A DNA stretch of 64,000 bases from Candidatus Saccharimonadales bacterium (GTDB lineage: Bacteria; Patescibacteriota; Saccharimonadia; Saccharimonadales; UBA4665): assembly GCA_036263915.1 (NCBI GenBank), contig DATASD010000005.1, forward strand, positions 75,059-139,058, in the 5' to 3' direction. The notes under the pieces are model-generated. The model was not told where the DNA came from, did not search any database, and worked only from the letters and a program-made list of their open reading frames with translations. A program made the position numbers and the translations under genes. Below, piece after piece: positions 7,136-53,601 of this stretch. How positions within the stretch are numbered: the first letter of the stretch is position 1; each line of letters begins with the position of its first letter.

Positions 7136-7151
7136 TAGGTACACGAGCACT

Positions 7152-7185
7152 AAAAGACGCCCAGAAACAAGGGCGTCTTTTTATA
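7152..7185 (+). terminator. Rho-independent terminator after fusA
   Basis: AAAAGACGCCC / loop / GGGCGTCTTTT stem followed by a T-run, 17 nt after the fusA stop. Confidence 0.7.
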
Positions 7186-7214
7186 TTGCGCTGGCGATGC
7201 GTGCGCTGTACACT
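7186..7214 (+). promoter_or_regulatory. candidate promoter (TTGCGC-N17-TACACT) for the chorismate mutase gene
   Basis: TTGCGC at 7186-7191, a 17-nt spacer, TACACT at 7209-7214. GAGGA RBS at 7215-7219 before the ATG at 7225. Confidence 0.4.
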
Positions 7215-7224
7215 GAGGACTACG

Positions 7225-7491
7225 ATGCAAGAACAGTACGACCTGGCAGAGCTGCGTCGACAGATCGACCGTGTCGATGAGCAGCTTGTCCAGCTCTTGA
7301 ATGAACGTGCCCGCTTATCGCTCCAAGCCGGCATCGCCAAGAACTGGAAAGATATCTATCGTCCGGAGCGCGAAAAACAAGTCGTGAGCCACGTAACGTC
7401 AGTCAGCAATGGCCCGCTTTCTAACGAAGCAGTAACTGAAATCTTTCAAAAAATTATAGAGATCTGTCGCGCCATTCAGCGCAATAAATAA
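7225..7491 (+). CDS. AroQ-type chorismate mutase (88 aa)
   Basis: LAELRRQIDRVDEQLVQLLNERARLSLQAGIAK...YRPEREKQV matches the helical AroQ CM pattern (R..ID.iD..l..Ll..R...). The ATG at 7225 has an RBS, so the track start at 7186 is unlikely. Confidence 0.7.
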   Translation: MQEQYDLAELRRQIDRVDEQLVQLLNERARLSLQAGIAKNWKDIYRPEREKQVVSHVTSVSNGPLSNEAVTEIFQKIIEICRAIQRNK

Positions 7492-8766: not shown

Positions 8767-8783
8767 GGATTTTCCTTCCATAT

Positions 8784-8810
8784 AAAAAGCCCCGAGGGTA
8801 TCCCCGGGGC
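8784..8810 (-). terminator. attenuator terminator in the 5' leader of the dehydratase-like gene
   Basis: The minus strand reads GCCCCGGGGAUACCCUCGGGGC followed by UUUUU, immediately upstream of the RBS and start. No minus-strand gene lies upstream that it could terminate. Confidence 0.55.
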
Positions 8811-8834
8811 GTTGGTGGTTATGTTCGTATTATT

Positions 8835-8909
8835 TTATGCGTGTACCATCAATCGACCCCGAGTGGGGATAATAATGATGGCAATAATTTGTTTGCTCAC
8901 GCGCAACAT
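8835..8909 (-). CDS. candidate Ile-rich leader peptide MLRVSKQIIAIIIIPTRGRLMVHA (24 aa)
   Basis: Minus-strand ATG at 8909 and TAA at 8837-8835. Six Ile codons fall within seven positions (8888-8868). The ORF overlaps alternative helices that compete with the downstream terminator. Confidence 0.45.
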   Translation of the reverse strand: MLRVSKQIIAIIIIPTRGRLMVHA

Positions 8910-8953
8910 AGAAACAAGTATGTACTCGTCGCTCGCCATTTGCAAGTTTTTAC

Positions 8954-8982
8954 TTTACACTAGAGATGATTTCCGCTACAAT
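8954..8982 (+). promoter_or_regulatory. sigma70-like promoter upstream of tuf (TTTACA-N17-TACAAT)
   Basis: TTTACA at 8954-8959, a 17-nt spacer, TACAAT at 8977-8982. Confidence 0.5.
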
Positions 8983-9055
8983 ACGTGGGTCACTGGTGTG
9001 AGTATTTATCCTCATGCAGAAAACATTTAGTTATTAATTAAGGAGTCTTTCCCAA

Positions 9056-10240
9056 ATGGCAGACACATTTGACCGAAGCAAGCCGCACGTGAACGTTGGT
9101 ACTATGGGCCACGTTGACCACGGTAAAACGACTTTGACGGCCGCTATTACGGCTGTTCTCGCTAAGCGCCTTCCGAGCGCTGTTAACAAACCAATCGCGT
9201 ACGACCAGATCGACAACGCACCTGAAGAGCGCGCTCGTGGTATTACCATCGCTACCTCGCACCAAGAGTACGAGAGCGAAAAACGTCACTACGCACACGT
9301 TGACATGCCTGGTCACGCCGACTACGTCAAAAACATGATCACCGGTGCCGCCCAGGTTGACGGTGCTATCCTCGTGGTGTCTGCCGCTGATGGTCCTATG
9401 CCTCAGACTCGTGAGCACGTATTGCTTGCTCACCAGGTTGGTGTGCCAAAGATCCTCGTGTTCCTCAACAAGATGGACCTCGCCGACCCAGAACTCGTTG
9501 ACCTCGTCGAAGAAGAGGTTCGCGAACTCCTCGAAAAGAACGGTTTCGACAAGGACTGCCCAATTATCCGCGGTTCTGCAACCAAGGCTCTCGAAGGCGA
9601 CGCTGCCAACGAAGACGCTATCATGGAACTTGTGAAGGCTATGGATGACTACATTCCACAGCCAAAGCGCGAACTCGACAAAGCATTTTTGATGCCTATC
9701 GAAGACGTATTCTCGATCAAGGGTCGTGGTACGGTTGCAACCGGTCGTATCGAGCAGGGTGTTGTGAAGATCAACGACGAAGTTGAAATCGTTGGTGTTC
9801 GCCCAACTCAGAAATCTGTCGTAACTGGTATTGAAGCCTTCAAGAAGCAACTTGACCAAGGTCAAGCAGGTGACAACGCCGGTGTATTGCTTCGCGGTAT
9901 TGAGCGCGACGACATCGAGCGCGGTCAGGTGATTTGTAAGCCAGGCTCGATCACTCCTCACACCGAGTTTGAATCAGAAGTTTACATTCTGAACAAAGAC
10001 GAAGGTGGCCGTCACACGCCATTCTTCAAGGGCTACAAGCCTCAGTTCTACTTCCGCACGACTGACGTCACCGGTGAAGTTGAACTCCCAGCCGACAAAG
10101 AAATGGTAATGCCAGGCGACACCATAACCTTCAAGGTTAAGTTGCTCGCTCCAATTGCCATGGACCAGGGTCTTCGCTTCGCTATCCGCGAAGGTGGCCG
10201 TACGGTCGGCGCCGGTGTTGTAACCAAGATCATCAAATAA
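9056..10240 (+). CDS. tuf: translation elongation factor Tu
   Basis: [25 protein letters not shown] and the rest of a canonical 394-aa EF-Tu. Confidence 0.98.
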
Positions 10241-10284: not shown

Positions 10285-10614
10285 ATGGTAGCAGAACCAA
10301 AGAAAGAACAGAAACAACGGATCCGTATTCGCCTCAAGGCATACGACCACAAAGTCATCGACCAAGCTGCAAAGCAGATCGTTGACACTGCGCTTCGCAC
10401 GGGCGCTACCATCGCTGGTCCAATCCCACTGCCAACTGACCGCAGCACATTTACGGTTGTAAAAAGCCCACACGTGTACAAAAAGGGTCGTGAGCAGTTT
10501 GAAATGCGCGTTCACAAACGCCTTATCGACGTTACTGATCCAACACCAAAGACAATCGACTCATTGATGAATCTCTCACTGCCAGCCGGCTGTGATGTAG
10601 CCATCAAAATGTAA
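10285..10614 (+). CDS. rpsJ: 30S ribosomal protein S10
   Basis: [24 protein letters not shown]...GPIPLPT...[28 protein letters not shown]. Confidence 0.97.
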
Positions 10615-10636
10615 CAATACTTGTTACGAAAAAAAC

Positions 10637-10667
10637 AAAAACCGCTCCCAAAAAAGAGCGGTTTTTA
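10637..10667 (+). terminator. Rho-independent terminator directly after rpsJ
   Basis: AAAACCGCTC / loop CCAAAAAA / GAGCGGTTTT followed by T. Confidence 0.75.
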
Positions 10668-10685
10668 CATGGTAAGGACATACAC

Positions 10686-11033
10686 ATGGAATACTCAGCT
10701 AAAGACTACATACCCATAACGGACCCCCAACTAGTACATGTACTGGAAGATGCAGGATGCATAGGCGATCCCGTTCAAATGAACGATTCTGTTGATCCAC
10801 GCTACGGCGAAATTACTGAAGGTACTGTTATGGTACCTGCACGTGCTATACATGAGGCCTTTGGCTTATACGATAGTTTGCGAGATGATTACATCAGGGA
10901 AGGTGTGCCATACGACGATACGCCTTCCGATCGCCTATTTAACGCAATGAGCCAACGACAACATGCACTACTCCAGGGCTATGATTTCTTACATGGTTCT
11001 CCATCTACCGAGATACGAGAGCCCGACGCGTAA
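10686..11033 (+). CDS. hypothetical acidic 115-aa protein
   Basis: ORF with an AAGGA RBS about 8 nt upstream. Asp/Glu-rich with no TM segment. First gene of the block inserted between rpsJ and rplC. Confidence 0.5.
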   Translation: MEYSAKDYIPITDPQLVHVLEDAGCIGDPVQMNDSVDPRYGEITEGTVMVPARAIHEAFGLYDSLRDDYIREGVPYDDTPSDRLFNAMSQRQHALLQGYDFLHGSPSTEIREPDA

Positions 11034-11045
11034 ATACATTCGCGC

Positions 11046-11372
11046 ATGCTCGCCGTGTATGCTTTAATAGTGCTCATGGCTTCATCTAAAACAAAAAGCA
11101 AATCCCGTGCTCGAAGCATGAACGCGCAGCAATCATTTGATGGCGTGTATCTCTTAAAGCTCGTCTTGTATTTGCTTGTTGGTTCACTCTGGTTGAAGGT
11201 CACAACCGCAGCTGGCACGCATATTCCATTGCCGATCGGTTTTATTATCGGACTGCTCTTTACGACTCATGAGCATTTTCAGATTGATCGCAAGATAGAG
11301 TATGCGGTATTATTGGTAGCTATGCTTGTAGGTTACTTCGTGCCTACCTACGGCTTGTATATCACCCTGTAA
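11046..11372 (+). CDS. hypothetical small membrane protein (~3 hydrophobic segments)
   Basis: A basic N-terminal stretch (KTKSKSRARS) is followed by the hydrophobic runs VYLLKLVLYLLVGSLWL, IPLPIGFIIGLLF and AVLLVAMLVGYFV. Confidence 0.5.
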   Translation: MLAVYALIVLMASSKTKSKSRARSMNAQQSFDGVYLLKLVLYLLVGSLWLKVTTAAGTHIPLPIGFIIGLLFTTHEHFQIDRKIEYAVLLVAMLVGYFVPTYGLYITL

Positions 11373-11397
11373 CGATTCCGATCAGTGAGGTTTCTGT

Positions 11398-13938
11398 ATG
11401 TCTTTCGAAGTGCCACCTAACCATGAAATGCCCGACCCACCACACCTAATAGAGCAAACGGCATCGCATGGCTCTGACCCAGTCTACGAAATCCATGAGC
11501 CGCCTACCACTGATGCCCCAGATGTGCCTATCGTACTGAGCGAGATGCGTGGTGCTTATCAAGAAGGTGGTAAGCCTGGCGAAATAACTAGTGCAATGAA
11601 AACACCAGAGGAATATCAGCGCGCCATCACTGAGCTTACGACCACATCACCGGAGGTTGCAGAAGCGCAGAGTGCGCGACTCGACGAAGTGGTCGACGAG
11701 GCACTTCGTCACACGGTCGGCGAGCATGAGCGGCAGGTGCTGGAGTATGCACGTGGCATATTCAAGTGGACACTTTTCGGTAAGTCCGAAGAGCAGTTGC
11801 CCGACGGCCTGGTGATTGGATCGCACCGAGGGAGGCCTGCGGTTCGCCTCGATGCGCGAAAGCTTATTACGCTCGACTGTATTATTGATGCAGGGAGCCG
11901 GCTCGAGCAATTTGGATTCGAAGAGGTTGTCGAGGCGGTCGATGCCGACATAGAATCTCGTTCGGACGCTGTTCGCGAAGAGATGCAGGGCGAAAGCAGA
12001 CAAAACCCTGCATATCTTTTCATGCAATCGTTTGATGTTCATGCGCAACCCGAAATAGTCGACGTACCACTCGACGAACGCGAAAAAGCTATTCGCGCTG
12101 GCCAGGTTCGCCAAGAGGTCATTGAGCGACACAATCTTCTCGAGCCGGGTGGGGTCTTTGAGCGGGCCTCAAGCGCAGACACTGAGCTGCGCCGCGGTTT
12201 GTGGCACATCGATGACGAAACAAAGCCGCAAGTAGAATCACGCAGCGACCAAAATCCTACCGAGCGTGCGCGTGCCTATCTCGCTGAACGTGCCATCGAC
12301 TATCATATTGCACGTCGCGACAATATTGAAGATACACCGGAAGTCCGTGAGCGGCTTAAGCAGCTAATGCTCTCCACCGATGCTCCAGCTGACAATGCTG
12401 AAGGCTACGACCGCTTTATTCTCTTTGATGACGCAACCTCATCTACCTATGTACTTTCCGAAGAACTTACAGAGGGGAGCCCTCTCATGGAAGAGGTGTT
12501 GGCGGGTAGTATTTTGAGAAACTATGTCAATACGCTCCTCAGAGATTATGATCCGTCACTGCCTTATGATCAGGCTGTGGAAAAGACTGTCAATCAGGCC
12601 GTTCAAGAAGTATGGGAATTTATGTTTGACGACATCGGTAAGGCAGGCGCCCTCGATAACATAGGCGAGTACGACCCAGCCATTCGCAACTCGCTTATGA
12701 CGCCTCGAGGCGAGCAAGTGCCACAAGGTACTTTGACGGAACACGCGCATCTGCACCACCACGGTACCGGTGATACGGAGTTTATGACCCGTGAGGCGGC
12801 TGAGTCGCTACAGGAGCAATACGTTGGCCACATAGAATCAGGTACTATTCCGGGCATGCGCGTCTTGCAGATTCGCAGCCGCGACGAAACCTTGCCGCAC
12901 ACAAGCGACCGGAGCGATGCAGTGCTGCGACTCCATGGCAGAGAATTTAATGATCACGACCCGTCGATTCCTGGCTTTACACTCGTGGCGCGCAACGATC
13001 TCGAAGGTCGGTATGAATTTACGCGCAATGACACCGACCCATATGCTTCACCGGAAGTGCCTATTTCAACGCAGCAGGCGCAGGAACTTGCGGATACATA
13101 CCGTGCAATTGGTCTCAATCAGCTCGCTTTTCGCATGTCGCAAAATACTGAACTTACCGTTGCCGATTTGGCGGAATATATAACAATATATAGTACTTAT
13201 CCACTGCCACAAGAGACCAGGTACAGCGAACAGTATCCACGAAGCCACAGCACACCAGACCTCGAAAGCTTTCGAGATTTCGTGGATGATGGCCGCCTTG
13301 CTGTACAATGTACTGGCGCAAAAAATTTCATGAAGCTATCGCTACAGCAGCTCTTTGGTGTTGAAAGTGCGAGCAGCATTGCCGGCCGAGCCATTGGTAC
13401 TGGCGACATTACTGAGCTTCAACACGGTCAGACGACCTTTACCCACAATGGTGAGTCATATATTATAGACACCACGCCACCTTCGCGTGCCGGCATGGGA
13501 ACATTACCCAATCCACCGTCGGACGCACCGCTACGACCACCAAGGCCAACCGCTCACGAGCAACTGCAGCGTACGCCACGTCAACAAGAAATCTCTGCGG
13601 AAATACCTCGCGATCCTAGCGCGCAGCTGCATGCCGCTCGGGCCTCGCTCGAAACACAGCTCGGTGCTGCTATGGGAATCCGGGGTCAGCAAGCGCTTTA
13701 CGAGGCGGTGGCAAAGTTACAGCCAAACGTCGATCCCGTCCGACGCACAACAGAGATGGCGATACAGGCGGCAGAAGGTGCCGCAACCCGTGAAGCGGCT
13801 GAATCGCTCGTAACGTATCTACAAAATTATCGCCAACAACCACGAGAGACCCTGAGGGCACAGGGCTATCCGGTGTATGAACCTCGGCTGCTCGACCTAT
13901 TGCACATGACGGCACAACGCATCTACAGGAATGCATAG
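11398..13938 (+). CDS. paralog 1 (most divergent) of the ~850-aa family with a transglutaminase-like C/H/D signature
   Basis: Shares family blocks with the other four copies: FKWTLFGK..QLPDGLVI, VPLDEREKAI, IPGFTLV, DPYASPEVPI, VQCTGAKNFMKLSL...HGQTTFTHNGESYIIDTTP, DPVRRT. GTGAGG RBS before the ATG. Confidence 0.8.
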   Translation: MSFEVPPNHEMPDPPHLIEQTASHGSDPVYEIHEPPTTDAPDVPIVLSEMRGAYQEGGKPGEITSAMKTPEEYQRAITELTTTSPEVAEAQSARLDEVVDEALRHTVGEHERQVLEYARGIFKWTLFGKSEEQLPDGLVIGSHRGRPAVRLDARKLITLDCIIDAGSRLEQFGFEEVVEAVDADIESRSDAVREEMQGESRQNPAYLFMQSFDVHAQPEIVDVPLDEREKAIRAGQVRQEVIERHNLLEPGGVFERASSADTELRRGLWHIDDETKPQVESRSDQNPTERARAYLAERAIDYHIARRDNIEDTPEVRERLKQLMLSTDAPADNAEGYDRFILFDDATSSTYVLSEELTEGSPLMEEVLAGSILRNYVNTLLRDYDPSLPYDQAVEKTVNQAVQEVWEFMFDDIGKAGALDNIGEYDPAIRNSLMTPRGEQVPQGTLTEHAHLHHHGTGDTEFMTREAAESLQEQYVGHIESGTIPGMRVLQIRSRDETLPHTSDRSDAVLRLHGREFNDHDPSIPGFTLVARNDLEGRYEFTRNDTDPYASPEVPISTQQAQELADTYRAIGLNQLAFRMSQNTELTVADLAEYITIYSTYPLPQETRYSEQYPRSHSTPDLESFRDFVDDGRLAVQCTGAKNFMKLSLQQLFGVESASSIAGRAIGTGDITELQHGQTTFTHNGESYIIDTTPPSRAGMGTLPNPPSDAPLRPPRPTAHEQLQRTPRQQEISAEIPRDPSAQLHAARASLETQLGAAMGIRGQQALYEAVAKLQPNVDPVRRTTEMAIQAAEGAATREAAESLVTYLQNYRQQPRETLRAQGYPVYEPRLLDLLHMTAQRIYRNA

Positions 13939-13967
13939 TTGACTTACCTATACTTTAATGATATAGT
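13939..13967 (+). promoter_or_regulatory. strong internal promoter candidate between paralogs 1 and 2 (TTGACT-N17-TATAGT)
   Basis: TTGACT at 13939-13944, a 17-nt spacer, TATAGT at 13962-13967, in the only sizeable (AT-rich) gap inside the array. Confidence 0.5.
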
Positions 13968-13994
13968 AAACATTTGTCTATAGGTGCTCCTGTC

Positions 13995-16538
13995 ATGCCT
14001 CACGCAGAATACTCACGCTCAAACGAAACGAACAATCCATTGCTTTTTCAGTCTGCGCTCGAATTGTATACTACTGCCTCTGATTTTGTAGGAACTCTTC
14101 AGGATTCGTATACAGGGATCATTGAGCCACCATCAACCAACTCCGAACTTATTAAGAGTGCTGACCGAGTAGTTGACGAAGCATTGGCCGAAAACCCCAT
14201 TCAGACCCAAACGCCAGAAATACCAATAGATCCAGAGGCACGTCGTCGCCGAGTCGCCGAACTTACGGCATGTACGCCCGAATTCGAGGCCGAGAAACAA
14301 CTTGAGCTAGACGCAATCATCGACGAGACACGTCTGCATGCGCCAAGCGCGCACGATAGGCGATCGATCGAGTTGGCCGGCAATCTATACCGATGGCAAC
14401 TATTTGGTAAACATAGCGATCCATTGCCCGATGGCTTTGTAATAACCAAACATCCTCACACTGGCGACACCTACATTAGTTGCGACAAGCGACGATCTTT
14501 CACGGCCAGTTGCATAGACACTGCAGATGCTCAGTTCGAGATACGTGGCCTGAATAAACTTATGGGTGCGACACGAGAGCACCTGCGAGAGGTGCATGAC
14601 ACTTCAGACGAACTACATGCAATAATAAACGATAACCCCGCTAATGCATTTCTCCGTAGTTTTGACGTGCCTTCCCAGCCAAAGACTACAGAAGTCCCCC
14701 TCGATCAACGACAGCGGGCAATCGAAGAAGAGAAGCTTCGCCAGGCCGTACTCCAACGACATGGACTTGATGCAACGCAAGCCGCAAACATCCAGCGCGG
14801 CGACCCTGTCGATATGGAGCTTCGGCGGGCATTTTGGCGCCTAGACGACCAAACCCAGCAACAGCGGGAGCCACAAAAGCAAGACGGCCTTATGCGGTTG
14901 CGTGATTATTTCGTCGACTGCATAGCTGATGAGTATATCCGAGTTAGAAGCAACAATATGCCAGAATACGACAAGGGGACGATAAAGGCGGTTTTCGACG
15001 ATAGCCTAGCTAGAAGAGATGAATACAGAGAAATTGCATCGTGGACTCACGGTTCCGACAGGAAAATCATCAAAGAGCTCGGTGGCGACAAAGCCCGCGA
15101 CCAATTACAATACGAGCTCATTCAAAAAACAATAGGTATAGCCATAACTTCGCTTATCCACTCCGAGACACCTCCAGAAAACTTTGCTGACTTTATAGAA
15201 AGTGTGGAGCGAGAGACAACGGCTGTGATATCTAACACTCTACGTTACAATATTGGCGCCATAAAATACGATGTAACAACAGGCCACAGCCCGAACCTAC
15301 GCGATGCCATCGTTGCGCCAAGTGGGGAATTTGTGCCATATGAGGAACTTCAGGAGTATCATCACGCGCATCCAATAGGTGAAACGGCATACGTAAACGA
15401 GAGCATGATAGATCGCCAGGAGGCGCGAACGCTTGGCGAAGTGCAATGGGGACAAGTGCCTAATCAGCGTGTTATTCAGATTCAAGAACGCGACACTTCA
15501 TTACCAAAGATAAGCCTCGAAACCGAGCTTGAACTGAAGTTGTATGATCGCGAGTTTGATACCGCTGATCCTGTAATACCAGGCTATACGCTCGTAAGTC
15601 ACGATGATCTATATTTTGGGTTCAAACGTGATGCTACCGATCCGTATGCGCCGGTTAATGTGCCTCTTCCTGAGGATAAACGGTTATCTTTGGCTAAAGA
15701 ATTCCGCGATATTGGTCTCGAGACCCTTGCTACTCGCGTAGAAAGTCAGCCGCTCACCGTTGAAGAGCTACGTGCGAATATTCAGCAAAGTAGTTATTAC
15801 CCGAAGCCAGAGTGGGACGATGTCGGCGCGACAAAAAAATATCCGCATAGTATAGCGAACGACAAGTTGGAACGGTTTGAGCGAGTTGTTATTAACAACG
15901 AACTCCATGTGCAATGTACGGGAGCGGCTAATTTCCTGAGGCTATCGCTTGATCATATATTTGGCCCTGGCAGCGCCAATATTACCAGCGGCGTAGCTAT
16001 AGATAGCAAGACCTATATCACCGCTGCTCGACACCGACAGACAACATTTGTGCACAACGGGCTATCGTACATCTTGGACGCGACGTCTGGCGCGGCATCG
16101 CTGCCATCAAACACACGCGAGGCGCCCGAAGCTCGCACCACTCAGGATGCACCGCCTGCCGCACCGAAAGGGCCTATCGTCTCTTATCAAGACGTCGCAC
16201 ATTCACAGCAGGAAAACCTACAGATGGCTCGACGCTCTCTTGAATCTCAGCTGAGTAACGCCTTGCAAACGCCTGATGCGCAAGCTCTTTATAGCCACGT
16301 TGCTGCACTGCCGGAGGCAACCGACCCAGTGCGCCGCACGCTTGGTCTCGCCATGCGTGCTACTAACGGAGGCACAATATCAAAAGCCGAAGCAATCGCT
16401 CTGGTAGAATTTTTAGATGTCTACAAGAAGCGCGCACCTGAAGAATTGCGCAGTTTCGGCTTACCGGAATACAGCCCACAGATGCTTGACATGCTTGTCA
16501 CAAGCGCGCGAACCATCGCCTGTAACATTGCCGCATAA
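13995..16538 (+). CDS. paralog 2 of the ~850-aa transglutaminase-like family
   Basis: The ATG at 13995 (MPHAEY...) aligns with the MPSREF/MPSRQF starts of copies 3-5 and has an AGGTG RBS 8 nt upstream. The track start at 13974 is a TTG. Contains VQCTGAANFLRLSL...HRQTTFVHNGLSYILDATSG. Confidence 0.85.
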   Translation: MPHAEYSRSNETNNPLLFQSALELYTTASDFVGTLQDSYTGIIEPPSTNSELIKSADRVVDEALAENPIQTQTPEIPIDPEARRRRVAELTACTPEFEAEKQLELDAIIDETRLHAPSAHDRRSIELAGNLYRWQLFGKHSDPLPDGFVITKHPHTGDTYISCDKRRSFTASCIDTADAQFEIRGLNKLMGATREHLREVHDTSDELHAIINDNPANAFLRSFDVPSQPKTTEVPLDQRQRAIEEEKLRQAVLQRHGLDATQAANIQRGDPVDMELRRAFWRLDDQTQQQREPQKQDGLMRLRDYFVDCIADEYIRVRSNNMPEYDKGTIKAVFDDSLARRDEYREIASWTHGSDRKIIKELGGDKARDQLQYELIQKTIGIAITSLIHSETPPENFADFIESVERETTAVISNTLRYNIGAIKYDVTTGHSPNLRDAIVAPSGEFVPYEELQEYHHAHPIGETAYVNESMIDRQEARTLGEVQWGQVPNQRVIQIQERDTSLPKISLETELELKLYDREFDTADPVIPGYTLVSHDDLYFGFKRDATDPYAPVNVPLPEDKRLSLAKEFRDIGLETLATRVESQPLTVEELRANIQQSSYYPKPEWDDVGATKKYPHSIANDKLERFERVVINNELHVQCTGAANFLRLSLDHIFGPGSANITSGVAIDSKTYITAARHRQTTFVHNGLSYILDATSGAASLPSNTREAPEARTTQDAPPAAPKGPIVSYQDVAHSQQENLQMARRSLESQLSNALQTPDAQALYSHVAALPEATDPVRRTLGLAMRATNGGTISKAEAIALVEFLDVYKKRAPEELRSFGLPEYSPQMLDMLVTSARTIACNIAA

Positions 16539-16549
16539 TGTACAGAACT

Positions 16550-19111
16550 ATGCCAAGTCGTGAATTTCACCAACCACAAGAGCCACGAGGAATACCGCTA
16601 TCATCCTTGGAAGCTTTGGGAGACATTCCCACTTCCGACATCGATTTTAGTACGACAGAGTCGTCATATCTAATAACTCCGCCCACTTCGCTTCCAGATC
16701 ATAAAGAGAGCACCTCGTTGATGGAGATACCAGAAGTACAGTCTGAAGTGCCTACAACGTTAGAGACCCGAACGCGCCGTTTTATGGAGATTGTTAGCTG
16801 CTCATCAGAGGTCGAGGCAGAGCAACGACCCAAATTTGATGCAGCCGTCGAACGTGCGCTGTCCGCCGCTCCTAGTACACACGACAAGCAATCTATCCAG
16901 CGAACGGCCGATATTTTACGCTGGCAAATGTTCGGCAAGCCTGATGATCAGCTGCCAGAAGGACTGGTTATCACCGAAGTAATGGGCAAGACAAAACCGA
17001 GTCTCGATGCTCGAAAGCCATTTACCATTGAATGTGCAGTCGAAAGCTATGTCGCCCTCGCCCAGACCGGAGTCCAGGGCGTCGAAAACGCGGTTATTGC
17101 CGATATTCGCCAACGTCTGCACGGCGCCGAGCCAGAAGTCCGATCACTATGTAACAATAATCCGGCTAATGCTCTGCTGCGCAGCTTTGATGTACAAGGC
17201 CAGCCGCTCACCAAAGAAGTACCGCTTGATCAGCGGCAACGGGCTATCGAAGAGGAAAAGGCGCGACGGACGACCATGCAGCAATTCGGTATGGGTGATG
17301 ACGTTCGTGTCGAAGATATCCCACGCGGCGGCCCCGTTGATAATGCGCTGCGCCGTGCCTATTGGCGCCTAGACGATCAGACTCAACAGAAACGGGAGCC
17401 GCAGTCCGAACAGGGTGCACACGACAGAGCGCGACAGTACTTTGCGGGCCGAATTGCAGATGCTTACATAACCGCCAAAAAACAGATGGGAGGCAAAGAC
17501 ACCCCTGACCGGCAATATATAATCGATTTTCTGAATAATACCAAGGTAGATTACGATATTGACACACGATTGCAACGCCAATATATTCTTGCCTACAAAA
17601 CAGAGGTTGTTGCGGATGAGTTGCAAACGTTATCCGTCGACACAAGTGATCCGCTTGGCTATGATTGTACCCGTTTTACCCTCCAACAGGGGATAGCCGA
17701 ATTGTTCAGCGCAGACTGCCCCGCATCGTATACCGAATTCATGGATGATATAGAGTATGAGTTGTATCAGGCCATTGAGTATTCAGCCACTTCAGTGATC
17801 GGGACATTCGGTGACTATACTCCCCTGAGCACCGGCACAGAACTTCGGGATAGGCTACTCGCTCCCTGCGGTGAATTCGTGGACGCAGAAACGCTCAAGG
17901 AAGCACGGTCGCACCACGGCCATCCGAATGAAGCGTGTGGCTATATGACGCAAGAGGAGATGCAGCAAGCCAGCATGGAGTCAATCGGCTCGGTCCAATC
18001 AGGCAGCGTTCCGAGTCCTCGCATCATTCAAATGCAGGAAAAGAACCCAGCGTTACCGCGACCCAGTGGCCAGAGCGATCTAAAACTATTTTTGTATGAT
18101 GAACGATTCACCTATGCCGATCCTGACATACCTGGCTATACGCTTGTACGTCACAACGGCGATGCGTACGAATTTATGCACGATGCTGCCGATCCATATG
18201 TGGCAGCCAATGTGCCCATCAGCGCCGACGCCCAGCAGATACTCACTCACGAATACGAACAGCTGGGCCTGCAAACGCTTGCCGATCGCATCAAAAGTCA
18301 GTCGACGTTAACTGTTGAGGAACTACGCGGCTTTATTCAAGCAGAAAGTAATTACCCAGTGCCGACCAACGATGAAATTTTAGGCAGGAGCAGCAGGTAC
18401 AGTCGGGCGCCTTACTCAGATCTGCAACACTTCGGAAGAGTTGTTGCTGGTGGTAAACTCCAGATACAATGCACCGGAGCAGCAAGCTTCCTCAAGCTAT
18501 CACTACAAAAAGCGTTTGGCAACCCTAGCGCAAGTACGGTAAACGGACTCACCATAGAACCCTCGAGCACTACCCTAAATAATCTCGGCCACCAGCAGAC
18601 CGCCTTTCAACATGATGGCAAGATGTATATTTTGGATGCAACACCGGGCGGAGCAACCACGCCGCTGGTAGGGCAGGCGCCAGACATAAAGCGTACAGAT
18701 GTGCAGCAAGTGCCAATTCGTCCGGCCGATATGCAGACACTCAATAGCCCTGCAAAAACTGCGGATGAGCAGTTGCAGGCGATTCGTACTAACTTTGAAA
18801 AACAGCTGGGCATTGCACTCAAAGCACCGCACACGGAAGCTCTCTATGAACATATCGCCAAGCTGCCCGAAGCCACCGATCCTGTTCGGCGAACGCTTGG
18901 GCTAGCGATGCGTGCCACTAGCGGAGACACCGTGTCATTTGCCGAAGCAACCTCACATCTGGACTTCTTAGACGCATACAAGGATCGCAGCCCGCAAGAA
19001 CTCCGCCAGCTCGGTTTACCAGTTTACGACAGGAAGATGTTGGATATGCTCAGTAAAAGCACAGAAGCCATCGCCGGTATTTTCAATATATCTATCACTA
19101 TACCTGAGTAG
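16550..19111 (+). CDS. paralog 3 of the ~850-aa transglutaminase-like family
   Basis: The conserved start MPSREF is at 16550. An upstream in-frame ATG at 16538 overlaps the copy-2 stop. Candidate triad: Cys codon 18470-18472, His codon 18590-18592, Asp codon 18635-18637. Confidence 0.85.
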   Translation: MPSREFHQPQEPRGIPLSSLEALGDIPTSDIDFSTTESSYLITPPTSLPDHKESTSLMEIPEVQSEVPTTLETRTRRFMEIVSCSSEVEAEQRPKFDAAVERALSAAPSTHDKQSIQRTADILRWQMFGKPDDQLPEGLVITEVMGKTKPSLDARKPFTIECAVESYVALAQTGVQGVENAVIADIRQRLHGAEPEVRSLCNNNPANALLRSFDVQGQPLTKEVPLDQRQRAIEEEKARRTTMQQFGMGDDVRVEDIPRGGPVDNALRRAYWRLDDQTQQKREPQSEQGAHDRARQYFAGRIADAYITAKKQMGGKDTPDRQYIIDFLNNTKVDYDIDTRLQRQYILAYKTEVVADELQTLSVDTSDPLGYDCTRFTLQQGIAELFSADCPASYTEFMDDIEYELYQAIEYSATSVIGTFGDYTPLSTGTELRDRLLAPCGEFVDAETLKEARSHHGHPNEACGYMTQEEMQQASMESIGSVQSGSVPSPRIIQMQEKNPALPRPSGQSDLKLFLYDERFTYADPDIPGYTLVRHNGDAYEFMHDAADPYVAANVPISADAQQILTHEYEQLGLQTLADRIKSQSTLTVEELRGFIQAESNYPVPTNDEILGRSSRYSRAPYSDLQHFGRVVAGGKLQIQCTGAASFLKLSLQKAFGNPSASTVNGLTIEPSSTTLNNLGHQQTAFQHDGKMYILDATPGGATTPLVGQAPDIKRTDVQQVPIRPADMQTLNSPAKTADEQLQAIRTNFEKQLGIALKAPHTEALYEHIAKLPEATDPVRRTLGLAMRATSGDTVSFAEATSHLDFLDAYKDRSPQELRQLGLPVYDRKMLDMLSKSTEAIAGIFNISITIPE

Positions 19112-19115
19112 TCCT

Positions 19116-21695
19116 ATGCCAAGTCGTCAATTTTACCAACCACAAGAACGAGGACTGGAGTCGCTCATCAATCCAGTTGTCACCCTTTTTGACTTTGAAG
19201 CCGAGACCATCATTGAGCCTATACCGGAATGGGCAACCGATACCGACGAGGTAACGGTGCCGTGCTTGACGATTCCTACCTCAGTTCCAGATCATAGCGA
19301 AAGCACCCCGCCAAAGGCAGTGATAGAGGTGCAACCTGCCGTGCCTGGGACTCCCGAGGCCCGATCCCGCCGTTTCATGGAAATTGCCAGCTGTTCGCCG
19401 GAAGTAGCAGCAGAACAACGCTCGAAACTAGACGCTGCTGTTGCGAGCGCTTGCGCTACCGCACCAAGCATGCACGACAAGCAATCCATACAACGAGTAG
19501 CCAATATCTTACGCTGGAAATTGTTTGGTAACGTTGGTGACACCTTGCCAGAAGGACTGGTTATTACAGAAGTAAAGGGCGATCCGAGCCTCAGTCTCGA
19601 CACCCGAAAATCATTTACGGCCGAATGTGCAGGCAAAGCCTATCACTCGATTATGTTAGCTGGTGGTATCAGTGCCGAAAACGCAGTTCTTTGGGACATT
19701 GATAAGCGTATGAGCGACTCCGCTACAGAAGTACGGGCGCTTATCAGCGCTACACCAGCGAATGCGTTACTCCGCAGCTTTGATGCACAAGGCCAGCCAC
19801 AAACAAACGAGGTGCCCCTCGACCAAAGACAGCGGGCAATCGAAGAAGAGAAAGTACGCCGTCAAACGTTACAACAGTTCGGCATGGGCGATGACGTTCG
19901 TGTCGAAGATATCCCACGCGGCAGCGCTGTCGACAATGCGCTGCGTCGCGCCTATTGGCGCATTGATAACCAAACGCAGCAAAGGCAAGAACCACAAACA
20001 GAGCAAAGTGCGTTCGACAAAGCTCGCCTGTATTTTGCAGAACGACTTGCCGATGCTTACATCAAAGTACAAAAACAGAAAAATCAAGTGGACGTCCCAA
20101 GTAGACAAGAAGTCATTACTCTTCTGTGCGACACAAAGTTGGGGTCCATGGACAGAGAAGCACGACGCTTGCATACGCGGCTATTAGACTACAAATCATA
20201 CGTCATATATGACGAACTCCAAGAACTATCGCTCGACCCCGATAAGGATCCTTTTGGCTACGCATGTGCTCGCGAGACCTTAAAAGCGGCAACGGACCAG
20301 CTGTTTGTCGGTCTTGACCTAAGCACCTATACTAAATCTCTCGCCTCGATAGAGAGCCAGGCATATAGCAGGGTCGCCTCCGGCATAATGGCTGAGGTGG
20401 GAGACTTTAGAAGGTACCGCCCCGCGGACTGGCTGGTGCAACTCCGCGATCAAATGTTAGATCCACAAGGCGAATATGTCGACCTCGCTACGCTCGAGGA
20501 GGCAGGGAAACATCATCAACACCTTAATGAAGCACCGATGTACGTCAGCCAAGAAGCATTACAAAATGATCTGGCACAGTCTGCTGGCTCTGTGCAGTCA
20601 GGCGGCGTTGCAAGTGCGCGTATTATACAAACCCGAGAAAAGGATACAGGGCTGCCAGCACCCACCGGCCAAGGTGACCTGCAATTGACGCTGCACGACA
20701 AGCAATTTACATATGCCGATCCCGCCATACCCGGTTATACGCTCGTGGGCCGCAGTGGCAATGCGTATGAATTTACCCGTGATGCTACCGACCCGTACGT
20801 GGCAGCCTACATACCAATCAGTGACAACGCTCGACAGACGTTGGCACAAGAGTACAAGAACATCGGCCTCCGCAAGCTCGCAGCGCAGGTTACCAACGGT
20901 CCCACATTCACCGTGGAACAGTTGCGTAGTGCCATTCAAGCCCAGAGCCACTATCCGTTGCCGACCGAAGCTGAACTTGCAAGTGGCACCGGTATGTATA
21001 GCAATAAAATATATTGTATAGGGCTGTCGGACTTTGAGAGTTTTGTAGCCAATGGCAAACTTCATGTGCAATGCACCGGGGCCTCACAATTTCTGAAGTC
21101 CTCACTGCAAACAGCGTTTGACTACCGGAATGTAGGTGTAGCGAACGGGCTTTCGATAGACCCATCTACTACCAACATCAGTGCAGCTGGCCATCAACAA
21201 ACAACGTTTTATCATAATGGAAAGATGTATATTCTGGATGCGACGCCAGGCGTAGCGACCACGCCTCGTAGCGGAGAGGCACCAAATGTACCGAATAACC
21301 TCGTGCAGCAAGTACCAGCACAAGTAGCGAGTATGCGCTCGCTGAATAAACCTCCGAGAACCACCACCGAAGAGCTGCGAGCTATCCGCAGTAATTTTGA
21401 AAGACATCTGCGTATTGCACTCAAAGCGCCGGACACCCAGACGCTTTACGAACGAGTCGCCAAGCTGCCCGAAACCACCGATCCTGTGCGCCGCACGCTG
21501 AGCGTGACCATGCGCGCCAGCAGCGGAGGGGCGGTAACAAAGGCTGAGGCGGATGCTCTCGTGGACTTTCTGGATAGATACAAACAGTTTAGTGCGGCAG
21601 ACCTTCGAAGCTCCGGCCTACCAGTATATGAACGTCAGCTTCTTGACTTGCTGAGCGCAAGCGCGCAAGCTATTGCTCATACAACTTCAGCCTAA
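19116..21695 (+). CDS. paralog 4 of the ~850-aa transglutaminase-like family
   Basis: MPSRQFYQPQE start. Contains VQCTGASQFLKSSL...GHQQTTFYHNGKMYILDATPG and KLPETTDPVRRTL. Confidence 0.85.
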   Translation: MPSRQFYQPQERGLESLINPVVTLFDFEAETIIEPIPEWATDTDEVTVPCLTIPTSVPDHSESTPPKAVIEVQPAVPGTPEARSRRFMEIASCSPEVAAEQRSKLDAAVASACATAPSMHDKQSIQRVANILRWKLFGNVGDTLPEGLVITEVKGDPSLSLDTRKSFTAECAGKAYHSIMLAGGISAENAVLWDIDKRMSDSATEVRALISATPANALLRSFDAQGQPQTNEVPLDQRQRAIEEEKVRRQTLQQFGMGDDVRVEDIPRGSAVDNALRRAYWRIDNQTQQRQEPQTEQSAFDKARLYFAERLADAYIKVQKQKNQVDVPSRQEVITLLCDTKLGSMDREARRLHTRLLDYKSYVIYDELQELSLDPDKDPFGYACARETLKAATDQLFVGLDLSTYTKSLASIESQAYSRVASGIMAEVGDFRRYRPADWLVQLRDQMLDPQGEYVDLATLEEAGKHHQHLNEAPMYVSQEALQNDLAQSAGSVQSGGVASARIIQTREKDTGLPAPTGQGDLQLTLHDKQFTYADPAIPGYTLVGRSGNAYEFTRDATDPYVAAYIPISDNARQTLAQEYKNIGLRKLAAQVTNGPTFTVEQLRSAIQAQSHYPLPTEAELASGTGMYSNKIYCIGLSDFESFVANGKLHVQCTGASQFLKSSLQTAFDYRNVGVANGLSIDPSTTNISAAGHQQTTFYHNGKMYILDATPGVATTPRSGEAPNVPNNLVQQVPAQVASMRSLNKPPRTTTEELRAIRSNFERHLRIALKAPDTQTLYERVAKLPETTDPVRRTLSVTMRASSGGAVTKAEADALVDFLDRYKQFSAADLRSSGLPVYERQLLDLLSASAQAIAHTTSA

Positions 21696-21706
21696 CCAGG
21701 ATTTAT

Positions 21707-24274
21707 ATGCCCAGCCGCGAGTTTTTCCAATCACCAGAACAACCACCGGAAATCTTCTCATTGCCGGTAGATGTTCATATAGATGCAGAGTCTACTGCTA
21801 TCACTGAGCCTGTATCCGCCCCGACGGACACGGGCAATATGTCTTATTACGGGCCGCTAGTAGGTGCGGAAATTGATGACCCGCTGCCAGAAGCACCCAG
21901 TACTCAAGAGAACCCGCCGCCAACAGAGACGCCAGAGCAGACTGAGGTGCCCGAAATACCTCCAACTGCCGAGGCCAGGCAGCAGCGTTTTACAGAAATC
22001 ATGAGTTGCTCACCAGAGTTCGCTGCCAAGCATCTTCCTGAATTTGATAAGGTGGTCGAAACAACGATGCAGACTGCTCCCGGGCCACACGAAAAGCAGT
22101 CTATCCAACGAGTAGCCGGTATTCTCCGCTGGTACTATTTTGGCAAGCCTGGTGATCAACTGCCAGAAGGCTTGGTCATCACAGAGCATGACGACATGCG
22201 GCAGCCAACTTTTGATGCCCGGAAACTTTTTACCGAAAGGTGCGCCGAGGAGGCGTACAGACAACTCGGCAACGACATGCGATCAATACTAAGCGCAGTG
22301 ACACGGCACGTTGCGGTGCGCGGTGAAGAAGCGCGTTCCGAAGTGCACGCCATAGTCAACGACAATCCCGGCAATGCCTTACTTCGTAGTTTTGATGCAC
22401 ACGACCAGCCGAACACCGCAGAGACGCCACTCAGCCAGCAAGAACGTGCAATCGAAGAAGGAAAAGTACGGCGTGCCATTATGACGAGATTCGGCATGAA
22501 CGACACAACGCCAGAAGGGGAAATCACCCGCGGTGGGGCAGTCGATAGCGCGCTGCGGCGTGCTTATTGGCGTATCGATGACGAAACGAGCCAGCACCCG
22601 GAACCTCAAAAACAGGATGCTTTTGCCAAGGCAAAGAGCTACTTTGCCGAGCGCCTTGTAATGGCACGCAACGAATTTCGACAAGGCATAGACCTACCCC
22701 CACTTGACCCCAAGCGCGCATATGACATTTTAGTCAACTATGACGCTACCTCGCTCAAGGGTTACGATGAGGATTTACGTCGAGAACTTCTGGGTTCTAT
22801 ATTGGAGGTCGCGACATCAGAATGCGACATACTTACTGATCCGAACAGGACGCTCGAGCGCGAAAGCACTCTTGTGACACTCGACGAGGGCCTACGAAAA
22901 ATTTTTAGCTCTGACCGCCCTGATTCATACGATGCGCTCTTGGGTTCAGTCGAAGACCACGCTACGGGTGTACTATTATATCAATCACGGCCTACGCCTG
23001 AACTATATGCGTACACTATAAGCTACGCGCGCCCACGCCACCAACTACTTGCACCCGAAGGAGAGTATGTACCCGTGGAAACACTCGCAGAAGCAACAAA
23101 TAGCCATGAGCATATTAGCACATGCGCCCAATACCATGGCTCTGCGGAAATAGAGAAATCCAGACAAGCATACGTGGGGGCCGTACATCGCGGCAGCGTG
23201 CCGGATCAGCGGATTATACGAACCAAAGAAGTCGATCCGACTCTTCCTGAAAATACACCAGGTGATCTTACCCTTCTTTTAACAGATGAGCAGTTTACAT
23301 ACGCCGATCCGTACATACCAGGATATACACTTGTGAGCCGCGAGACCGATGCCTATACTTTTACGCGCGATTCGGAGGATCCGTACGTGGCCGCGAACGT
23401 GCCAATTGAAGATTGGGCGAAACGAAGCTTAGCCGCAGAGTACCAACGGATCGGCCTCAGTGACCTTGCAGCGAAACTTACGCAGGCCTCTTCGCTCACC
23501 GTGGAACAACTGCGGTCGTACGTCGAATCAGAAAGTGATTATTACATACCGGACCGCACCGGAGTGGATGCGAACGGCAATCGTATCGAGGTAGACGATA
23601 CGAGGCTTTCCGGTTTTAAGGGCGTTGTTCGGAATGGCAAGCTCCTAGCGCAATGCAGCGGTGCTGCCAGTTTCTTGAAGTTGTCGCTCGAAAGAGCGTT
23701 CGGCGAAGGAAATGCACATGTAGTAAATGGGTTGTCCATTAACCGTTCGACACGAGTCATTGACAAAGCAGGACACCAACAGACCTCGTTTATTCATGAT
23801 GGGCGCATGTACATCCTTGATGCGACCCCTGGCGGCAGCACTTTTCCCCAGCAGGGCCAAGCGCCACGAGTACAAGAGCACTTAGCACGTCAGGTACCAC
23901 AGGAAACTGGTGAATTACAAATGCAACCACTCGTAGAACCGGCGAAGCCAAAAGAAGAGCAGCTACGTGCCACAAGGGTAAATTTTGAGCAACAACTCAG
24001 TGTGGCCCTTGGCGCTCCCGACCAGCAGGCGCTTTACGAACGAGTCGCCAAGCTGCCCGAAGCCACCGATCCCGTGCGCCGCACCATGACGCTTGCTATG
24101 CAAGCTACCACTGGTAGTGCACGTAAAGCAGATGCCGAAACACTGCATACGTTTCTCAAGAATTATAGTGAGAAGGGCGCGGCCGAGCTCAAAACGATGG
24201 GCCTTCCTGCGTACGACAGTGGCATGCTGACCATGCTCGCAGGCACGGTACAGCGCATCGCCGAAAACCTTTAA
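21707..24274 (+). CDS. paralog 5 of the ~850-aa transglutaminase-like family
   Basis: MPSREFFQSPE start. Contains AQCSGAASFLKLSL...GHQQTSFIHDGRMYILDATPG and KLPEATDPVRRTM. Confidence 0.85.
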   Translation: MPSREFFQSPEQPPEIFSLPVDVHIDAESTAITEPVSAPTDTGNMSYYGPLVGAEIDDPLPEAPSTQENPPPTETPEQTEVPEIPPTAEARQQRFTEIMSCSPEFAAKHLPEFDKVVETTMQTAPGPHEKQSIQRVAGILRWYYFGKPGDQLPEGLVITEHDDMRQPTFDARKLFTERCAEEAYRQLGNDMRSILSAVTRHVAVRGEEARSEVHAIVNDNPGNALLRSFDAHDQPNTAETPLSQQERAIEEGKVRRAIMTRFGMNDTTPEGEITRGGAVDSALRRAYWRIDDETSQHPEPQKQDAFAKAKSYFAERLVMARNEFRQGIDLPPLDPKRAYDILVNYDATSLKGYDEDLRRELLGSILEVATSECDILTDPNRTLERESTLVTLDEGLRKIFSSDRPDSYDALLGSVEDHATGVLLYQSRPTPELYAYTISYARPRHQLLAPEGEYVPVETLAEATNSHEHISTCAQYHGSAEIEKSRQAYVGAVHRGSVPDQRIIRTKEVDPTLPENTPGDLTLLLTDEQFTYADPYIPGYTLVSRETDAYTFTRDSEDPYVAANVPIEDWAKRSLAAEYQRIGLSDLAAKLTQASSLTVEQLRSYVESESDYYIPDRTGVDANGNRIEVDDTRLSGFKGVVRNGKLLAQCSGAASFLKLSLERAFGEGNAHVVNGLSINRSTRVIDKAGHQQTSFIHDGRMYILDATPGGSTFPQQGQAPRVQEHLARQVPQETGELQMQPLVEPAKPKEEQLRATRVNFEQQLSVALGAPDQQALYERVAKLPEATDPVRRTMTLAMQATTGSARKADAETLHTFLKNYSEKGAAELKTMGLPAYDSGMLTMLAGTVQRIAENL

Positions 24275-24296
24275 GTAATGTAGAATTGTCTACATA

Positions 24297-24326
24297 TTGA
24301 CAAGGGGTGGCGAAAGCTGCTACACT
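24297..24326 (+). promoter_or_regulatory. sigma70-like promoter for the rplC-led operon (TTGACA-N18-TACACT)
   Basis: TTGACA at 24297-24302, an 18-nt spacer, TACACT at 24321-24326, about 160 nt upstream of rplC. Confidence 0.55.
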
Positions 24327-24393
24327 GTAACGGTATAACAAATTCCTGTACTTGGTGATTTGAGTAGGTCTTGTCTGTAACAGATAGGAAACC

Positions 24394-24413
24394 GCTCGGA
24401 GCCGAGCATTTTT
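24394..24413 (+). promoter_or_regulatory. short hairpin plus T-run in the rplC leader (possible attenuator)
   Basis: GCTCG-GAGC-CGAGC (5-bp stem) followed by ATTTTT, between the predicted promoter and rplC. Confidence 0.3.
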
Positions 24414-24486
24414 GTGTCATAGGCATAAAATTTCGAGGCGGCGGGATAAGTACATGCAGGCGACCAAGCGCCAGCACGGAGACACT

Positions 24487-25104
24487 ATGAAAGCATTAAT
24501 CACTCGAAAGGTCGGCATGACGAGTACCATCGCAGAAGACGGTACCGTGCAAGCTGTTACCTTGCTTTCCGCTAGTCCCTGCGTTATCACGCAGGTCAAA
24601 ACCGACGAAACCGACGGCTACAAAGCTGTGCAGGTGGGTTTTGAGGAAGCGAAACAACAAAACGTTGCAAAGGCCCAACAAGGTCACTTTAAGGACGCCG
24701 GTAAGCTCCCGAAGATTATTCGTGAGTTCCGCGTAGACGAAGTTACTGAAGACCTCAAGGTTGGCGAAACGATTAACCCAGAGGTCTTTTCAATTGGCGA
24801 CGAAATCGACGCAACCGGCACCTCGAAGGGTAAAGGTTGGGCTGGTACCATCAAACGCCACAACTTCCACCGCGGTCGTAAAACGCACGGTGGTCGCAGC
24901 TACCGCCGCCCAGGTTCGATCGGTTCGATGTATCCCCAACACATTTTTAAAGGTAAAAAGATGGCCGGTCAGATGGGTCACGAGCAAGTAACCGTCAAAA
25001 ACTTGAAGGTTGCTTTGATCGACACTGACCTCGGCGTCATCGGCGTAACTGGTGCGGTCCCTGGCCCGCGCAAGGGTATTGTCATCATTAAGGAGGCCAA
25101 ATAA
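24487..25104 (+). CDS. rplC: 50S ribosomal protein L3
   Basis: MKALITRKVGMTSTI...GKGWAGTIKRHNFHRG..THG. The ATG at 24487 has a GGAG RBS. The track ORF start at 24412 is an upstream extension. Confidence 0.96.
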   Translation: MKALITRKVGMTSTIAEDGTVQAVTLLSASPCVITQVKTDETDGYKAVQVGFEEAKQQNVAKAQQGHFKDAGKLPKIIREFRVDEVTEDLKVGETINPEVFSIGDEIDATGTSKGKGWAGTIKRHNFHRGRKTHGGRSYRRPGSIGSMYPQHIFKGKKMAGQMGHEQVTVKNLKVALIDTDLGVIGVTGAVPGPRKGIVIIKEAK

Positions 25105-46735: not shown

Positions 46736-46766
46736 AAAAGAGCCGCCCATAAAGCGGCTCTTTTTA
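46736..46766. terminator. bidirectional Rho-independent terminator (rpmG / GH15 gene)
   Basis: AAAAGAGCCGC / CCATAAA / GCGGCTCTTTTT. It has an A-run on one side and a T-run on the other and sits between convergent genes. Confidence 0.75.
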
Positions 46767-48707: not shown

Positions 48708-48709
48708 AG

Positions 48710-51126: not shown

Positions 51127-51235
51127 CCTCTATAAATCGTTTATGGTTGCTATGCCCGATTATAGTCAGGAACGGCGGTAAGCACAAGTCCAATCGCGCA
51201 TAGCTTTTTGGGTAAAAAGTTGGTATGGTAGGGTA

Positions 51236-51946: not shown

Positions 51947-51957
51947 GTATATAGCAC

Positions 51958-53562: not shown

Positions 53563-53601
53563 ATTTTATATTATATAACAATTCATGTATTATTTCAATG
53601 T

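Follow-up and report, generated by a model that had tools for sequence, protein, structure and literature searches.

A tandem array of five paralogous genes with a shared Cys-His-Asp triad

The window examined here is a 64,000-nucleotide stretch of the genome of a Candidatus Saccharimonadales bacterium (GenBank assembly GCA_036263915.1, contig DATASD010000005.1, positions 75,059 to 139,058). It carries an array of five intact open reading frames (ORFs), arranged head to tail on the + strand at 11398-24274 and each 846–859 codons long (Table 1; positions are those of the window). Their products could be aligned end to end, with pairwise identities of 31%–55%. Because DNA identity between copies did not exceed ~75%, the tandem duplications appear to be old and the copies diverged, and recent gene conversion among the copies was ruled out on the same ground. 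GenBank holds identical proteins as hypothetical proteins of a Candidatus Saccharimonadales metagenome-assembled genome (MAG; VHT70_01495, VHT70_01505), and JGI metagenome contigs contain identical proteins in unchanged gene order.

The original prediction, which centered on copy 3, described a Cys, a His 40 residues later, and an Asp 15 residues after that, and held that these residues and their flanking strings are kept in all five copies. Translation of 18440-18652 reproduced the peptide it quoted exactly, the codons and distances in copy 3 were as described, and ORF translations and the alignment confirmed the triad and flanking strings in every copy. Cys-to-His distances were 38, 39, 40, 40, and 40 residues in copies 1–5, respectively, and His-to-Asp distances were 15 residues in all five. 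The spacing pattern alone is weak evidence, since at least one C-x35-45-H-x13-18-D triple arose in 19%–48% of residue shuffles of each protein. Identity of these residues among the five paralogs likewise proves little, because common descent suffices to explain it.

Table 1. Positions of the five genes, their predicted triad residues, the modeled domains of copy 3, and flanking genes in the window.
Feature	Residues	Position	Strand	Description
Paralog 1		11398..13938	+	846-aa ORF; C-terminal conserved module ~12859-13485; family HMM hmmsearch E 5.7e-212
Paralog 2		13974..16538	+	854-aa ORF, listed start TTG; C-terminal module ~15468-16094
Paralog 3		16538..19111	+	857-aa ORF; copy of the original prediction
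Paralog 4		19116..21695	+	859-aa ORF; C-terminal module ~20619-21254
Paralog 5		21707..24274	+	855-aa ORF; C-terminal module ~23210-23836
Copy 1 triad	C638, H676, D691	13309-13311, 13423-13425, 13468-13470	+	
Copy 2 triad	C648, H687, D702	15915-15917, 16032-16034, 16077-16079	+	
Copy 3 Cys codon	Cys645	18470..18472	+	Proposed nucleophile; first residue of helix 645-660; aligns with NAT Cys68
Copy 3 His codon	His685	18590..18592	+	Proposed general base; inside strand 684-692; aligns with NAT His107
Copy 3 Asp codon	Asp700	18635..18637	+	Proposed third triad member; directly after strand 695-699; opens D-A-T-P motif; aligns with NAT Asp122
Copy 4 triad	C653, H693, D708	21072-21074, 21192-21194, 21237-21239	+	
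Copy 5 triad	C650, H690, D705	23654-23656, 23774-23776, 23819-23821	+	
Copy 3 disordered N-terminus	1-73	16538-16756		From model
Copy 3 helical N-region	75-480	16760-17977		From model; middle part 321-480 most variable
Copy 3 beta module	481-560	17978-18217		From model
Copy 3 NAT/transglutaminase-like core	561-705	18218-18652		From model; papain-like Cys-His-Asp domain
Copy 3 linker	706-741			From model
Copy 3 C-terminal helical bundle	742-857	18761-19108		From model
fusA		5051-7135		Upstream of array
tuf		9056-10240		Upstream of array
rpsJ (ribosomal protein S10)		10285..10614	+	Upstream block boundary; Pfam Ribosomal_S10 on identical gene of locus L002
Small ORF 1 before array		10686-11033		115-aa acidic protein; JGI gene call
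Small ORF 2 before array		11046-11372		108-aa hydrophobic protein, maximum KD19 1.89; JGI gene call
rplC (ribosomal protein L3)		24412..25104	+	Downstream block boundary; Pfam Ribosomal_L3

Conservation of the triad across a wider family

When 1.84 billion representative proteins were searched exhaustively with a profile built from the five copies, 270 relatives had E<=1e-3 and 155 had E<=1e-30; most were 780–860 aa in length and matched end to end. A word-indexed homologue search returned only this organism's own proteins, and none with the domain alignment. Among 150 aligned representatives, which are ~25% identical to copy 3, the Cys was present in 148 of 148 non-gap rows, the His in 149 of 150, and the Asp in 146 of 150, with Glu in two more. 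The full triad occurred in 146 of the 150. Cys-to-His distances ranged from 37 to 46 residues (mode 40), and His-to-Asp distances from 15 to 17 (15 in 136 of the 146 triad-bearing rows). In this alignment, conservation of the triad exceeds what chance would give.

Q644, G670, and Q687 (copy 3 numbering) were also near-invariant, and the family consensus reads QCTGAAxFL...HAQTxF...GxxYILDATP. Since the second His shared by the paralogs (H692) was kept in only 65 of 150 family members, H685 is the candidate catalytic His. We rejected a second active site at a paralog-invariant N-terminal Cys (C161 in copy 1), as that Cys was kept in only 34 of 150. Judged by columns with a dominant residue, the triad domain was the most conserved region. 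Variability was highest in residues 321-480 and 1-73, across the family as well as between the five copies.

Structural and profile comparisons of the conserved core

Scans against existing domain libraries did not classify the proteins. Nothing significant was found in Pfam, NCBIfam, PADLOC, or PHROGs scans of the five proteins, in Pfam scans of 31 family domains and nine full-length relatives, in Pfam and NCBIfam scans of the family hidden Markov model (HMM) consensus sequences, or in a comparison of family domain profiles with all PDB sequences. A HMMER match to Pfam Transglut_core, proposed as a check in the original prediction, was absent from the five copies, the 31 members, and the consensus, and the gathering score of the Pfam arylamine N-acetyltransferase (NAT) family, PF00797, was not reached by the five copies or the family consensus. 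There were weak hints to NAT: two members matched Pfam Acetyltransf_2 at E 0.053 (the best among 31), and human NAT2 in the PDB was matched at E 1.5 across the His/Asp stretch. Matches of the full-length profile to designed helical repeat proteins in the PDB (E down to 1.4e-7) were set aside as composition matches to the E/L/A-rich residues ~246-360 (~17270-17620), not homology.

A full-length AlphaFold2 model of copy 3, built with 93 family members as the alignment, was confident (predicted local distance difference test [pLDDT] 88.9, predicted template modeling score 0.84). In the model, C645 opens helix 645-660, H685 lies in strand 684-692, and D700 directly follows strand 695-699, a modeled placement that is canonical for the NAT/transglutaminase fold. 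A second model, of the domain from the five paralogs only, reached pLDDT 69.7. When this domain model was searched with Foldseek, all top PDB matches were NAT/transglutaminase-like. The best was Streptococcus pyogenes TglA (E 1.9e-3, probability 0.99), and others included LapG, the Streptococcus transglutaminase 4XZ7, human NAT2, many bacterial NATs, Cytophaga 3ISR, Rad4, TGM3, and protein 4.2. Transglut_core (PF01841), BTLCP/C93 (PF06035), NAT/Acetyltransf_2 (PF00797), and Rad4 have been grouped as cluster III of papain-like proteins (PMC10318531), and the families matched by Foldseek are those of this cluster.

Profile-profile comparison with hhalign, using a 146-sequence profile of the family domain, pointed to NAT in particular. 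The NAT sequences comprised mammalian NATs, PDB segments from M. loti, M. smegmatis, and M. tuberculosis, and eight plasmid-borne NATs (from bacteria and one archaeon). The family matched a narrower NAT profile with a probability of 87%–89% (P 2.2e-6 to 3.9e-6) and a broader one with 79%–84% (P 0.7–1.6e-5). The alignment was the same every time, covering 122–124 columns and placing the family Cys, His, and Asp on Cys68, His107, and Asp122 of NAT and the upstream "YExxGL" helix of the family on the "YFxRIGY" start of NAT. Real matches scored 42–44, compared with 12.5 for a reversed NAT profile and 21.3 for the best of 60 column shuffles. Against a mini-profile of Transglut_core made of three sequences (3ISR, TgpA, and PNGase), the family scored 13 with a probability of 0.3%, and as a calibration, NAT matched the same mini-profile with a probability of 82% (P 1.1e-5). 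From these three comparisons, we estimate that the distance between the family and NAT is about equal to that between NAT and the transglutaminase core, and that the family is more distant from the transglutaminase core than from NAT.

Several results weigh against placing the core in this group. No HMM-to-sequence search was significant against any library or PDB sequences. The Foldseek E-values were weak, with TM-scores of 0.3–0.4, and the query was the low-confidence five-sequence model (pLDDT 69.7). The confident full-length model returned only noise in Foldseek searches of PDB and BFVD, apparently because its long, mostly helical N-terminal part dominated the search. None of the hhalign probabilities reached the customary 95%, and adding the eight plasmid-borne NATs did not raise them. 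In addition, the NAT signature motifs RGG[WY]C and PFENL, visible in the NAT sequences compared, are missing from the family, which has L-x-V-Q-C-T-G-A-A and S-x-Y-x-x-P at these positions. NAT domain III, the lid, is missing as well: when full-length NAT was used in hhalign, only residues 5-132 aligned.

Weighing these points, we consider it likely that the five genes arose from a single gene by old tandem duplications, have since diverged, and belong to an uncharacterized family of ~800-residue proteins. The core of these proteins would form a branch of its own within the papain-like NAT/transglutaminase group and would use a Cys thioester mechanism, probably on a macromolecular substrate. 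By its profile, the family appears to be a separate, previously undescribed one within this group rather than a member of PF00797 or PF01841. The interpretation offered in the original prediction is supported in part. Its papain-like fold holds, since a domain of the NAT/transglutaminase group agrees with the Foldseek matches, the in-register hhalign alignment, and the full-length model; membership in Transglut_core does not agree with the Pfam and hhalign results.

Two readings would deny the proteins a catalytic role of this kind. One is that the spacing is coincidental and the domain unrelated to papain-like enzymes, as might be argued from the shuffled sequences and from the failure of any HMM library to recognize the proteins. 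We regard this as highly improbable, given that the residues are near-invariant across the family, their placement in secondary structure fits the fold, Foldseek matches were confined to one structural group, and hhalign scores were far above the reversed and shuffled controls. The other is that the papain-like fold is kept for binding in a noncatalytic scaffold, as in Rad4/XPC, protein 4.2, and menin. Inactive members are common in the group (PMC10318531), and the large helical regions of the model are of a type that often serves as binding surfaces. Inactive relatives typically lose triad residues, whereas here the triad is nearly universal in the family and intact in all five paralogs, and we consider a scaffold improbable too, if somewhat less so than a chance motif.

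Distribution of the family and genomic setting of the array

The family has so far been found almost only in Saccharibacteria (Saccharimonadales, Patescibacteria). We scanned one genome per GTDB species for DNA that could encode H-x-Q-x6-G-x2-Y-x-[LIVMF]-D-[AS]-T-P, using a degenerate pattern. The pattern matched 14 loci, 13 of which encode full family members according to hmmsearch, and 12 of these 13 came from named Saccharibacteria or Saccharimonadales MAGs. The single match in a Lachnospiraceae genome was a chance match and not a family member. All named NCBI cluster members were hypothetical proteins of Saccharimonadales or Patescibacteria MAGs. In the literature searched, no paper connected such a transglutaminase-like or NAT-like protein to Saccharibacteria.

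The array is embedded in a ribosomal-protein gene cluster, in which rplC is followed by rplD, rplB, rpsC, secY, and rpoA, and the DNA of the window is cellular, not viral. A mobile-element or phage location was rejected, as tblastn found no relative in plasmid and phage records. The genes rpsJ and rplC are usual neighbors in the S10 operon. Here, they are split by ~13.8 kb (10614-24412) containing two small ORFs and the five-gene array. The two small ORFs had no match in the libraries scanned, including PADLOC and PHROGs, and no homologue in other family loci. At those other loci, within the DNA fetched, the family gene was single-copy, its neighbors were ordinary housekeeping genes that varied from locus to locus, and rpsJ, rplC, and tuf, like the two small ORFs, had no homologue there. 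On these grounds, the five-copy array and its position are specific to this lineage.

Sequence features at the edges of the inserted block suggest that it is a separate transcription unit. Directly 3' of rpsJ is a hairpin with a 15-bp stem and T/A runs on both sides (10635-10668), and the gap between copy 5 and rplC contains a promoter-like TTGACA-18-TACACT element (with TG) and a weak hairpin (24297-24326 and 24394-24407, respectively). These hairpin and promoter calls are consensus matches only. Within the array, copy 3 is listed with an ATG at 16538 (MYRTMPSREF) that overlaps the copy 2 stop. A later ATG, at 16550 (MPSREF), agrees with the starts of copies 4 and 5 and with a conserved DNA repeat, D7, and is probably the real start of copy 3. 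The JGI call for this copy is shorter still, at 775 aa.

Some further features lie near family members at other loci. An orthologous pair of ABC_tran and MacB_PCD/FtsX genes adjoins the family gene at loci L007 (181-2294) and L025 (7873-9986) and lies ~6 kb away at L003 (18620-20755), with the ATPases of the three pairs 47%–65% identical. This proximity could reflect a functional link or inherited synteny. In the window itself, the surroundings of the array showed no MacB-type ABC pair. Locus L003 also has a GH15 gene near its family member; in the window, the - strand at 46764-51126 carries a GH15 glucoamylase-like gene close to one that resembles GT4/GT5 glycosyltransferases and has similarity to the starch-synthase domain. 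At locus L004, the gene at 5776-7662 encodes 628 aa, with a zf-UBP domain and a faint match to fn3; one ORF, of 179 aa, separates this gene from the family member downstream. The name "elongation factor P hydroxylase," given in JGI/IMG to protein P0010 (L003, 10001-12472), was rejected, as it had no Pfam or NCBIfam support and looks like a mis-annotation.

Elsewhere in the window, there are six more ORFs of 319–655 aa without a Pfam match (56-1672, 1687-3654, 39689-40648, 51958-53562 on the - strand, 58223-60070, and 60859-62424), none of which is related to the family. AT skew was strongly positive, at +0.10 to +0.19, across most of 1-46000, where the large ORFs sit on the + strand. It was about zero at 6000-10000 and changed sign at ~48000-56000, where large ORFs are on the - strand. 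The coding strand is A-rich.

Predicted activity and possible roles

The five proteins are probably thiol enzymes. We infer their catalytic competence, which the original prediction had also proposed, from conservation of the triad only. In the proposed mechanism, His685, oriented by Asp700, would activate Cys645, which would attack a carbonyl. This could be the carbonyl of an acyl-CoA (a thioester), of the amide in a Gln side chain, or of a peptide or isopeptide bond. A thioester acyl-enzyme would form and then pass on its acyl group; transfer to an amine would amount to acylation or transamidation, and transfer to water to hydrolysis or deamidation. The five copies may be variants with different targets. 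NAT is an acyl-CoA-dependent acyltransferase. Because the closest detectable relative of the family is NAT and not the transglutaminase core, acyltransferase activity belongs among the candidates, and the list of activities in the original prediction (protease, transglutaminase, or deamidase) is incomplete.

A protein or other macromolecular substrate seems more likely than a small arylamine, both because the large accessory domains differ most between paralogs and because the local motifs (Q-C, H-A-Q, and D-A-T-P) are nearer to those of transglutaminases than to those of NAT. The alternative is a strict NAT-type acyltransferase, in which Cys645 would act by a ping-pong mechanism to transfer acyl groups from acyl-CoA to a small-molecule amine, such as a host-derived or xenobiotic arylamine, a hydrazine, or an antibiotic. 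Profile-profile comparison detected no family other than NAT, whose triad was in register and whose His-to-Asp distance was the same; the weak Pfam and PDB hints were also to NAT, and NAT structures were prominent among the Foldseek matches. Against this, Q-C, S-x-Y-x-x-P, and D-A-T-P replace RGG[WY]C, PFENL, and D-x-G-F-G, the lid domain has no equivalent, and ~650 extra residues of accessory domains would be unusual for a small-molecule detoxifying enzyme. We therefore think a strict NAT activity unlikely and favor a macromolecular substrate.

The location of the proteins bears on another possibility. All five are acidic (net charge -19 to -60) and contain no signal peptide, membrane segment, or hydrophobic segment, which makes the cytosol their default predicted location. 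They could nonetheless be secreted or injected effectors or envelope enzymes that leave the cell by non-classical export and act by proteolysis, deamidation, or cross-linking on proteins of an Actinomycetota host, on envelope proteins, or on peptidoglycan, with host-symbiont conflict driving diversification of the five copies. Consistent with this, the family is found almost only in an epibiotic lineage, evolves fast (~25% identity between representatives), has a hypervariable helical region, and has undergone a lineage-specific expansion. Many families of cluster III are toxins or effectors (PMC10318531), and the MacB-type ABC pair described above adjoins or lies near the gene at three loci. 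However, the proteins lack signal peptides and membrane segments, the loci examined show no conserved neighbor resembling a secretion system or an immunity gene, PADLOC and PHROGs gave no match, and the ABC pair is present at only three of ~20 loci and may be inherited synteny. An exported role is, in our view, doubtful. Slightly less probable again is the more specific proposal that the proteins are fast-evolving thiol acyl-transfer effectors directed against an Actinomycetota host or host defenses, with five target-specific variants and with strong constitutive expression provided by the ribosomal superoperon site.

Saccharibacteria and other Patescibacteria have tiny genomes full of hypothetical proteins, and their action on hosts is largely obscure. 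Through the analysis, a group of hypothetical proteins becomes a defined family with at least 270 representative clusters, a confident model, and a predicted catalytic site (C645/H685/D700). This family would be a branch of the NAT/transglutaminase group not covered by current domain libraries. The expansion to five copies between rpsJ and rplC suggests that enzyme dosage or diversification matters in this lineage. If the proteins modify host or envelope proteins, the family would open a new way into epibiont biology; should they prove to be ordinary cytosolic acyltransferases, it would still provide a useful annotation and a candidate new Pfam family.

Comparison with known systems

The overall layout of the proteins has an architectural analogy, and only that, in the FtsEX-controlled wall hydrolases PcsB, CwlO, and RipC, which likewise have a papain-like Cys-His domain at the C-terminus, after a long helical region at the N-terminus. 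The MacB/FtsX-type ABC pair found at three family loci may be a further parallel. Those hydrolases are secreted and carry CHAP or NlpC/P60 domains, whereas the family described here is NAT-like and has no signal peptide. LapG (BTLCP, C93, PF06035) is a Cys-His-Asp protease of the same group as the family core. The two were compared by structure search only, in which LapG took Foldseek ranks 2–5, 7, and 11, with best target-normalized TM-scores of 0.36–0.40 and E-values of only ~0.02. LapG differs in being small, periplasmic, and calcium-dependent and in having a signal peptide.

The likeness to Transglut_core (PF01841) seen in the original prediction is present at the level of spacing and local motifs (C...HA...D-x-T). 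The bacterial enzymes have C-34-H-15-D in 3ISR and C-44-H-16-D in Pseudomonas aeruginosa TgpA (6G49), which agree with the 37–46 and 15–17 residues of the family. The family motifs H-A-Q and D-A-T-P resemble HAWVE and VDPT in TgpA and FDAT in 3ISR, and the family Q-C also occurs in the "GQCWVF" segment of factor XIII, an animal transglutaminase. At the level of whole profiles, the two part, with no Pfam match and an hhalign probability of 0.3%, compared with 82% for NAT on the same mini-profile.

NATs (PF00797) are the nearest detectable relatives and differ from the family mainly in what surrounds the triad. The G-F-G loop that follows the Asp in NAT (D-x-G-F-G) is absent, and D-A-T-P stands in its place. 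In the model, D700 is followed by a linker and a helical bundle instead of an alpha/beta lid, and the core sits in a protein of ~850 aa with unrelated helical and beta modules. The likeness lies in the core itself. Human NAT2 (2PFR), M. loti NAT1 (2BSZ), and M. smegmatis NAT (1W6F) have the same triad order with near-equal spacing (C68/H107/D122 versus C645/H685/D700), the Cys-to-His distance being 39 residues in NAT and 38–40 here and the His-to-Asp distance 15 in both. In NAT as in the family, a helical subdomain with a matching "Y-x-x-[IL]-G-[LY]" start precedes the helix that bears the Cys.

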